A DNA stretch of 64,000 bases, from assembly GCF_003334785.1 (NCBI RefSeq), contig NZ_QOWV01000018.1, one strand, 5' to 3'. The position numbers and the translations under genes are program-made. The notes below the pieces were generated by a model. It was not told the origin of the DNA. It ran no database searches and was given only the letters and a program-made list of their open reading frames with translations. This document shows positions 6,461 to 48,470 of the stretch, in pieces. This DNA is from Escherichia coli (lineage in GTDB: Bacteria; Pseudomonadota; Gammaproteobacteria; Enterobacterales; Enterobacteriaceae). Positions within the stretch are counted from its first letter, which is position 1. Each line of letters starts with the position of its first letter.

Positions 6461-7633
<1,173 letters not shown>

Positions 7634-7639
7634 CCACTT

Positions 7640-7822
<183 letters not shown>

Positions 7823-7884
7823 ATGGTTTGCCAGATACGTCATAGATCTAAATGCCACTGAATAACAGTTTAGTTGCCGTTCTT

Positions 7885-46077: not shown

Positions 46078-47271
46078 ATGACGGAACAAGAAAAAACCTC
46101 CGCCGTGGTTGAAGAGACCAGGGAGGCCGTGGACACCACGTCACAACCTGTCGCAACAGAAAAAAAGAGTAAGAACAATACCGCATTGATTCTCAGCGCG
46201 GTGGCTATCGCTATTGCTCTGGCGGCGGGCATCGGTTTGTATGGCTGGGGTAAACAACAGGCCGTCAATCAGACCGCCACCAGCGATGCCCTGGCTAACC
46301 AACTGACGGCATTGCAAAAAGCCCAGGAGAGCCAAAAAGCCGAGCTGGAAGGCATTATTAAGCAACAAGCTGCACAACTTAAGCAGGCGAATCGTCAGCA
46401 AGAAACGCTGGCAAAACAGTTGGATGAAGTCCAACAAAAGGTCGCCACCATTTCCGGCAGCGATGCTAAAACCTGGCTGCTGGCTCAGGCCGATTTTCTG
46501 GTGAAACTCGCCGGACGGAAGCTGTGGAGCGATCAGGACGTCACGACCGCTGCAGCGTTGCTGAAAAGTGCAGACGCCAGCCTGGCGGATATGAATGACC
46601 CGAGTCTGATTACCGTTCGTCGGGCAATTACCGATGATATCGCCAGCCTTTCTGCAGTATCGCAGGTGGATTATGACGGCATAATCCTTAAGCTTAATCA
46701 GCTTTCAAATCAGGTAGATAACCTGCGTCTGGCCGATAATGACAGCGATGGTTCGCCGATGGATTCAGACGGTGAAGAGCTTTCCAGTTCCATCAGCGAA
46801 TGGCGTATCAATCTGCAAAAAAGCTGGCAGAACTTTATGGACAACTTCATTACGATTCGCCGTCGTGATGACACCGCCGTACCGCTGTTAGCGCCAAATC
46901 AGGATATCTATCTGCGCGAAAATATTCGCTCTCGCCTGCTGGTCGCAGCACAAGCTGTACCGCGTCACCAGGAAGAGACTTATCGCCAGGCGCTGGAGAA
47001 CGTCTCCACCTGGGTACGTGCTTACTACGATACTGATGATGCCACCACCAAAGCGTTCCTCGACGAGGTGGACCAGTTAAGCCAGCAAAATATCTCGATG
47101 GATCTTCCGGAAACCCTGCAAAGCCAGGCGATGCTGGAAAAACTGATGCAGACTCGCGTGCGTAACCTGCTGGCACAACCGGCAGCGGGGACAACGGAAG
47201 CTAAACCTGCACCTGCACCTGCACCTGCACCGCAAGCTGATACTCCGGCAGCCGCGCCGCAAGGAGAATAA
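46078..47271 (+). CDS. hemX: HemX, membrane-anchored coiled-coil protein (397 aa here)
   Basis: ORF 46078..47271; N-terminal transmembrane segment, coiled-coil region, C-terminal Pro-Ala-rich tail containing the (CCTGCA)4 repeat. Confidence 0.9.
47206..47229 (+). repeat. Perfect hexanucleotide tandem repeat (CCTGCA)x4 inside hemX, encoding (Pro-Ala)4
   Basis: cctgca cctgca cctgca cctgca at 47206..47229, in frame, followed by ccg; protein reads [11 protein letters not shown]. Confidence 0.9.
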
Positions 47272-47273
47272 CC

Positions 47274-48470
47274 ATGCTAAAAGTGTTATTGCTCTTTGTG
47301 TTGCTGATTGCGGGGATCGTGGTTGGCCCGATGATTGCCGGCCATCAGGGTTATGTGCTGATCCAGACCGACAACTACAATATCGAAACCAGCGTCACGG
47401 GCCTGGCGATCATATTGATTCTGGCGATGGTAGTGCTGTTTGCCATTGAGTGGCTACTGCGGCGGATCTTCCGCACTGGCGCGCACACCCGTGGGTGGTT
47501 TGTCGGACGTAAGCGTCGCCGTGCACGTAAGCAGACCGAACAGGCGCTGCTGAAACTGGCGGAAGGCGATTATCAGCAAGTTGAAAAGCTGATGGCGAAA
47601 AATGCCGATCACGCGGAACAACCGGTGGTGAACTATCTACTGGCTGCCGAAGCCGCGCAACAACGTGGTGATGAAGCACGCGCCAACCAACATCTGGAAC
47701 GCGCAGCGGAGCTGGCCGGCAACGACACCATTCCGGTAGAAATCACCCGCGTACGTCTGCAACTGGCCCGTAATGAAAACCATGCTGCACGCCACGGCGT
47801 GGATAAGCTGCTGGAAGTTACGCCACGCCATCCGGAAGTATTACGTCTGGCGGAACAGGCGTATATCCGCACAGGTGCATGGAGTTCGCTGCTGGATATT
47901 ATCCCATCAATGGCGAAAGCCCATGTTGGTGATGAAGAACATCGTGCAATGCTGGAACAACAGGCATGGATTGGCCTGATGGATCAGGCGCGTGCCGATA
48001 ACGGTAGCGAAGGTTTGCGTAACTGGTGGAAAAACCAAAGCCGGAAAACGCGTCATCAGGTAGCGTTGCAGGTGGCAATGGCGGAACATCTTATTGAATG
48101 TGACGATCATGATACTGCCCAGCAAATTATCATCGATGGCCTGAAACGCCAGTACGACGATCGCCTACTGCTGCCGATTCCTCGACTGAAAACAAACAAT
48201 CCGGAACAGCTGGAAAAAGTGCTGCGCCAGCAAATCAAAAACGTCGGCGATCGCCCGCTGTTGTGGAGCACACTGGGCCAGTCACTGATGAAGCACGGAG
48301 AATGGCAGGAAGCATCGCTCGCCTTCCGCGCAGCGCTGAAACAACGTCCGGACGCCTACGATTACGCATGGCTTGCCGACGCGCTGGACAGACTGCACAA
48401 GCCGGAAGAAGCTGCAGCGATGCGTCGCGACGGTTTGATGTTAACGTTGCAGAATAACCCGCCACAGTAG
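47274..48470 (+). CDS. hemY: HemY, TPR-containing inner membrane protein (398 aa)
   Basis: ORF 47274..48470; starts 2 nt after the hemX stop; MLKVLLLFVLLIAGIVVGPMIAGHQGYVLIQTDNYNIETSVTGLAIILI. Confidence 0.92.
   Translation: MLKVLLLFVLLIAGIVVGPMIAGHQGYVLIQTDNYNIETSVTGLAIILILAMVVLFAIEWLLRRIFRTGAHTRGWFVGRKRRRARKQTEQALLKLAEGDYQQVEKLMAKNADHAEQPVVNYLLAAEAAQQRGDEARANQHLERAAELAGNDTIPVEITRVRLQLARNENHAARHGVDKLLEVTPRHPEVLRLAEQAYIRTGAWSSLLDIIPSMAKAHVGDEEHRAMLEQQAWIGLMDQARADNGSEGLRNWWKNQSRKTRHQVALQVAMAEHLIECDDHDTAQQIIIDGLKRQYDDRLLLPIPRLKTNNPEQLEKVLRQQIKNVGDRPLLWSTLGQSLMKHGEWQEASLAFRAALKQRPDAYDYAWLADALDRLHKPEEAAAMRRDGLMLTLQNNPPQ

Follow-up and report, generated by a model that had tools for sequence, protein, structure and literature searches.

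The hemX locus and its repeat

The DNA analysed here, referred to as the window, is a 64-kb stretch of Escherichia coli sequence in which hemD, hemX and hemY follow one another in that order, with hemD upstream of hemX and hemY downstream (Table 1). The hemX reading frame matched the NCBIfam model NF008173 over its full length with a score of 719 bits (cut-off 313), and the Pfam family PF04375 (HemX) covered residues 130–363 of the product (E = 3.7e-108); judged by these matches, the product is a member of the HemX family. The function of HemX is poorly defined. RefSeq and NCBIfam label the protein 'uroporphyrinogen-III C-methyltransferase', which Pfam gives only as putative; we take this to be a historical name, unsupported for this membrane protein. 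A single membrane helix was predicted near the N-terminus (residues ~36–54) with KKSK before it, which, together with known topology data, suggests an N-in anchor with the remainder of HemX in the periplasm. No solved structure of any HemX relative was found. One preprint describes HemX as distantly homologous to Mic60 but without the mitofilin domain (bioRxiv 10.1101/2022.06.14.496148), and a hemX deletion mutant showed lower sensitivity to gentamicin (PMC12282077).

Table 1. Coordinates in the window of the hemX repeat, its surroundings and the CVN014 primer sites
Feature	Coordinates	Strand	Remarks
hemX coding sequence, 397 aa	46078..47271	+	open reading frame with NCBIfam and Pfam match
(CCTGCA)4 microsatellite, variable core of CVN014	47206..47229	+	with partial copies, array 47205-47231
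Rest of the HemX tail, PQ[A/G] and ten more residues, with stop codon	47230..47271	+	invariant
hemY	47274..48470	+	starts 2 nt past the hemX stop and 45 nt past the tract
CVN014 reverse primer site, GCAGCRGGGACAACGGAAGC	47182..47201	+	0 mismatches, unique in the window
CVN014 forward primer site, TCCCCGCAATCAGCAAMACAAAGA, within the start of hemY	47293..47316	-	0 mismatches, unique in the window
CVN014 amplicon	47182-47316		135 bp
Repeat with a 98-bp unit	7633-7824		1.9 copies, 85% matches

A preliminary description of this DNA had reported four perfect, in-frame copies of CCTGCA encoding (Pro-Ala)4 in the C-terminal tail of HemX. Reading of the window sequence confirmed them: the four copies lie within the last 70 nt of hemX, preceded by GAAGCTAAA and followed by CCGCAAGCT, and encode PAPAPAPA, residues 377–384 of the protein. 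Tandem Repeats Finder returned the array with a period of 6, 4.5 copies, 100% matches and a score of 54. The doubled unit, CCTGCACCTGCA, occurred 3 times as compared with 0.00 expected in shuffled sequences, and the array was the sole hexamer repeat with at least three copies in the 64 kb; on both counts it is not there by chance. Each repeat strand can fold as a modest, imperfect hairpin through the self-complementary TGCA tetrads, with 2 × 2 mismatches between them; for the two 10-unit strands the hairpin energies were −11.3 kcal/mol (z = −4.4) and −13.7 kcal/mol (z = −3.0). Elsewhere in the window, a repeat with a 98-bp unit and a consensus containing GCCGGATGCGGCGTAAACGCCTTATCCGGCCTAC looks like an intergenic repeat cluster of the REP/BIME type.

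After the tract, HemX continues for 13 residues and then stops, and a GGAG motif within this last stretch is the likely ribosome-binding site of hemY. No Pfam domain was found C-terminal of the tract in HemX. Because the tract lies beyond the Pfam HemX domain and only 13 residues come after it, it belongs to a low-complexity tail rather than to a linker; composition and the Pfam boundary suggest that this tail is disordered. No promoter-like or terminator-like site overlapping the tract was found in the window sequence, and a role for the tract as a regulatory element was rejected.

Identity with the typing locus CVN014

On sequence grounds, the tract is the variable-number tandem repeat (VNTR) CVN014, an already known typing marker. 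The generic E. coli MLVA scheme that includes CVN014 (GECM-7, GECM-10) is reportedly that of Lindstedt et al. in 2007, as extended by Lobersli et al. in 2012. CVN014 has a 6-bp unit, is amplified with the primers TCCCCGCAATCAGCAAMACAAAGA and GCAGCRGGGACAACGGAAGC, and is scored as allele = (product − 111)/6 (PMC8143711); the identity drawn here rests on the primers as reprinted in that paper, which is a later one. In the window the two primers face each other across the tract, and the length of the product equals 111 + 4 × 6, so that the window types as allele 4. By the same formula, ten other genomes gave integer alleles (2, 3, 5–7 and 9–12). The tract can be equated with CVN014 because both primers match, once each, across it and because the 111-bp non-repeat part is the published offset. 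The other primers of the ten-locus MLVA scheme had no match in the window.

Within its assay, CVN014 is reported to vary more than any other locus (PMC3877011). One study recorded 9 alleles over a range of 4–15 with a Nei diversity of 0.83 (PMC3519732), and the allele-frequency table of a Swedish study resembles that of our own sample of 99 genomes (PMC5217547). As the most discriminating locus of generic E. coli MLVA, it is of a practical value that is already in use. Added here are the placement of CVN014 in the Pro-Ala tail of HemX, a wider allele range, and changes to the reverse-primer site in two lineages. No link of CVN014 to hemX or to a Pro-Ala tail was found in the searchable open-access papers, and a search of the full-text literature for hemX as a VNTR or tandem repeat returned only unrelated papers. 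The identification has no bearing on an open biological question unless the length of the tail affects the function of HemX or HemY.

The changes to the primer site concern two genomes. In 2020CK-00188, which is divergent (94% identity) and carries 9 units, a separate in-frame deletion of 9 nt just upstream of the array takes out part of the reverse-primer site. In W619, which carries 8 units, a G-to-A change falls within the same site (GCAGCGGAGACAACGGAAGC). From these sequences, CVN014 PCR is predicted to be weak or null in both.

Copy number among genomes

hemX was found in 5426/5426 complete E. coli genomes, of which ~220 were inspected, 24 by sequence and the others via alignment spans. 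Copy number varied both among genomes, as the preliminary description had proposed, and within clonal lineages, and ran from 1 to 25 units in arrays that were nearly always pure. The extremes, 1 unit in BKQ37E and 25 in SD134209, were verified by sequence as pure; they are the minimum and maximum among the genomes inspected, not over all 5,426. One genome per hemX length class was fetched and its tract extracted, and the flanks of these genomes were identical but for a few SNPs. Over all sequence-checked genomes, pure arrays of 1–13, 17 and 25 units were confirmed, their flanks being conserved.

The preliminary description had tentatively given a length of 393 aa for HemX of K-12 and had suggested that the four-residue gap to the window equals two repeat units. 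Both points were borne out by NEB Turbo, a K-12 derivative, in which hemX is 1182 bp long, encodes 393 aa and has 2 units as compared with 4 in the window, the flanks inside the CVN014 amplicon being identical to the window's. The alignment span of MG1655 hemX was 12 nt below that of the window. That the length difference lies in the tract held in every genome checked by sequence.

Among 40 evenly spaced hemX matches, spans ran from 1182 to 1254 bp in 6-bp steps with one exception, a span of 1215 bp that is due to the extra 9-nt deletion of 2020CK-00188. Apart from that genome, the spans in both systematic samples differed from the window by multiples of 6, and all of them were in frame, in agreement with the earlier expectation that 6-nt changes would leave the frame intact. 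The distribution of copy number (Table 2) was drawn up for 99 genomes from two pooled systematic samples of evenly spaced matches, most copy numbers being inferred from spans. The range in this sample was 1–19 units, with a median of 6, a mean of 6.6 and a Nei diversity of 0.89; alleles of up to 25 units turned up in further searches beyond it. A rough cross-check came from a synthetic query of 30 units, at least 80% of which was covered in 2,225 of the 5,426 genomes (41%); such coverage corresponds, by our estimate, to 7 units or more, and 42% of the sample of 99 has at least 7. Allele 2 was common (15/99) and allele 3 rare (2/99), frequencies that would not obviously be expected under stepwise neutral change in its simplest form; the pattern may stem from oversampling of laboratory strains and strains of K-12 type.

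Table 2. Number of genomes with each copy number in the pooled systematic samples (n = 99); the four genomes with 14 units include P276M, which has an interrupted array
Units	1	2	3	4	5	6	7	8	9	10	11	12	13	14	15	19
Genomes	1	15	2	7	16	16	11	7	5	4	5	3	1	4	1	1

In all the regions fetched, hemX was annotated as an intact CDS. HemX lengths of 391 to 439 aa are to be annotated as normal alleles, not as errors. One of the hemX matches belongs to a plasmid record, and hemX matched at two places in at least one genome. Because the tract is a hypermutable simple-sequence repeat within a gene and ends 45 nt before hemY begins, it brings to mind a phase-variable contingency locus at which repeat number would switch hemX or hemY on and off. 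Such a role is scarcely credible here: the unit is 6 nt long, span differences throughout both systematic samples are multiples of 3 with hemX intact, no promoter-like or terminator-like element lies over the tract, and the ribosome-binding site and start of hemY fall outside the array. For hemX itself, on/off switching was ruled out by the reading frame.

Sequence and assembly quality were called into question by a single genome. In P276M the array reads as 7 units, CCTGCTGCA, 1 unit, CCA and 4 units, and the annotation of the adjoining hemY shows a frameshift and an internal stop; the insertions and the frameshift suggest local errors, and the interrupted array may reflect faulty assembly or sequencing and not an impure allele that truly exists. 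That the variation as a whole is an artefact of assembling or sequencing a short repeat has next to no probability. Arrays of 6–150 nt, all but the longest, fit within one short read, the other sequence-checked alleles were pure with clean flanks, and related isolates shared the same allele (the pairs Z1815/Z1816 and AC-3/AC-5, and two stocks of strain 86-24). Independent PCR fragment sizing in MLVA studies, moreover, gives a similar allele range.

The tract changes quickly relative to the DNA around it. When the 25 kb around hemX (window 34600–59599) served as query, the best 60 genomes, all listed at 100.0% identity, had spans that differed by −6, +6, +36 and +54 bp. Four of these 60 were fetched and contained 3, 5, 10 and 13 units with 0 mismatches over 326 nt of flank. 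Five otherwise near-identical relatives carry insertions of ~1.3 kb or 2.7 kb in the same region, the 2.7-kb insertions being annotated as an IS66-like ISCro1 family transposase. Genomes labelled O157:H7 had 9, 10, 15, 16 and 17 units (17 verified in G5295), and strain 86-24, which we take to be an O157:H7 strain, had 6 by sequence; STEC and O157 genomes tend toward long arrays. The varied unit numbers on near-identical haplotypes and within O157:H7 indicate that the tract outpaces nearby point mutations. Across short epidemiological spans the tract is stable. Among ST131 isolates, CVN014 varied from 2 to 11 while most isolates kept all other loci unchanged (PMC3407997).

The same haplotypes bear on whether copy number changes mainly by homologous recombination, either through import of hemX alleles from other strains or through unequal crossing-over between sister chromosomes, which we hold to be very improbable. 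E. coli recombines often, the flank polymorphisms GCAGCG/GCAGCA and CAAGCT/CAAGGT combine variously with copy number, multi-unit jumps (4 to 10 or 13) are found on one haplotype, and the repeat strands can form modest hairpins. However, copy numbers differ with 0 mismatches in the 326-nt flank on 25-kb haplotypes listed at 100.0%, whereas imported alleles would usually bring flanking SNPs, and whole-unit changes arise clonally when similar E. coli VNTRs are passaged. RecA-dependent unequal exchange inside an array of 24–150 nt is possible.

Repeats at this site are not confined to E. coli. In a protein search, the HemX tails of Citrobacter and Salmonella were Pro/Ala-rich, with an end that was PAAAPQGE or differed from it by one substitution; PAAAPQGE was the end of most Citrobacter tails read and of Salmonella, and the single substitutions occurred in three Citrobacter species. 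At the DNA level, the site matching the E. coli tract contains GCACCT five times in C. gillenii and four times in C. rodentium, a 9-nt unit, CCTGCCGCA, in C. sedlakii, and a single CCTGCC in Salmonella. HemX variants of 394, 397 and 400 aa in C. sedlakii differ by (PAA)1, 2 and 3, and the 9-nt array thus has the look of a VNTR in its own right at this position. The Citrobacter arrays thus mark the site as repeat-prone beyond E. coli.

Other length variants of HemX were met in passing. An E. coli-type HemX of 485 aa, from a single ENA metagenome contig, contains an internal tandem duplication of 88 residues (HQEETY...TTEAKPA) with its junction at the start of the Pro-Ala tract and with an interrupted array (PAPAPAPTPAPAPAP); the duplication could be genuine or the product of misassembly. 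Two further variants, both rare, have their changes away from the tract: a 413-aa HemX of Salmonella Berta with a 24-residue duplication that starts inside the membrane helix, and a 387-aa HemX that lacks six residues (QESQKA) of the coiled-coil region, the deletion lying between short direct repeats.

Mechanism and comparison with known systems

The best explanation overall, to which we assign a probability of about 0.9, is that the tract is the CVN014 microsatellite, changing by whole-unit slippage, and that the length of the HemX tail drifts near-neutrally as a result. During replication, the nascent strand would pair again with its template shifted by one 6-nt unit or several, each slip adding or removing Pro-Ala dipeptides. 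Because the unit is a multiple of three, the reading frame and stop codon of hemX, the tail end PAAAPQGE and the start of hemY would be left untouched. With all alleles in frame, hemX is never switched off, and alleles differ in nothing but how long the low-complexity Pro/Ala tail is. Since this tail is outside the Pfam HemX domain and no domain comes after it, the changes in length are probably neutral or close to neutral, which would leave alleles free to drift in length. The wide range of alleles within clones likewise suggests near-neutral drift.

The slipped-strand mechanism put forward in the preliminary description is the most likely one and is the accepted mechanism for loci of this kind. 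It is favoured by the pure arrays, by whole-unit differences on identical flanks, and by passage experiments on other VNTRs; purity is expected if slippage continually turns the array over. MutS recognises 6-nt loops poorly, and such loops may escape mismatch repair at the tract. More speculatively, the hairpins of the repeat strands might stabilise slips of several units. The rate at which other E. coli VNTRs with units of 6–7 nt gained and lost whole units in passage ran from 4.4e-5 to 1.8e-3 per generation and was higher for long alleles (PMC3777172). Comparison of sequences does not rigorously tell slippage apart from recombination between misaligned repeats or from selection on length.

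Selection on length would imply that the Pro-Ala tail is functionally tuned, a stiff segment setting the reach or contacts of the C-terminus and alleles being selected by lineage or niche. We regard this as very unlikely. The Pro/Ala-rich tail and its largely conserved end are kept in Escherichia, Citrobacter and Salmonella, several Citrobacter species have arrays at this site as well (that of C. sedlakii being built from another, 9-nt unit), and long arrays tend to occur in STEC and O157 genomes, all of which would fit tuning, as would the properties of HemX as a membrane-anchored coiled-coil protein described as a Mic60 relative whose loss alters gentamicin sensitivity. However, the 13 residues after the tract include no domain that a longer segment could position, 2 units suffice for normal growth of K-12, and the array is absent in Salmonella. 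The spread of 3 to 13 units on near-identical 25-kb haplotypes, and of 9 to 17 units in O157:H7, looks like drift.

A decidedly unlikely form of tuning is that unit number adjusts HemX/HemY in haem-dependent respiration, acting either through a stiff tail or through mRNA structure just upstream of the hemY start, the start of hemY being assumed for this purpose to be translationally coupled to hemX. If true, tuning of this sort could explain the persistence of arrays at the site in Escherichia and several Citrobacter species.

The closest known system is CVN014 itself. It and the hemX tract are the same locus, as seen in the primers, the 6-bp unit, the 111-bp offset and the polymorphism, and no structural difference separates them; the allele range is 1–25 in complete genomes as compared with 1–15, the widest in the typing studies compared. 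The VNTRs used for MLVA of O157:H7 (Vhec and the O157-n loci, for example O157-10) are arrays of short units that change by whole units in clonal growth. They are used for outbreak typing and change faster when alleles are long; the hemX tract has 9–17 units in O157:H7. No O157-specific MLVA locus tied to hemX was found in the open-access literature, and the PulseNet O157 primers had no match in the window, which is weak evidence.

Other proteins contain segments that resemble the HemX tract in composition. The (Glu-Pro)n(Lys-Pro)n segment of TonB, the APAPAPAP hinge of OmpA and the Ala/Pro linkers of pyruvate dehydrogenase E2 are Pro-rich and rigid. The likeness would lie in the alternating X-Pro pattern, which is expected to be extended and stiff, and HemX is predicted to face the periplasm. 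These segments join two functional domains, whereas the HemX tract is part of a tail with 13 residues after it; an interpretation of the tract as a rigid Pro/Ala linker between domains was rejected because of those 13 residues and the lack of a Pfam domain downstream. To our knowledge, the Pro-rich segments of TonB, OmpA and E2 are not hypervariable microsatellites.

Finally, the tract is, like the contingency loci of Haemophilus, Neisseria and Campylobacter, a hypermutable intragenic repeat, and one that probably changes by slippage, as they do. In those loci a change in repeat number shifts the reading frame or the spacing of a promoter and so turns expression on or off, whereas in hemX the unit is 6 nt long and all alleles stay in frame.
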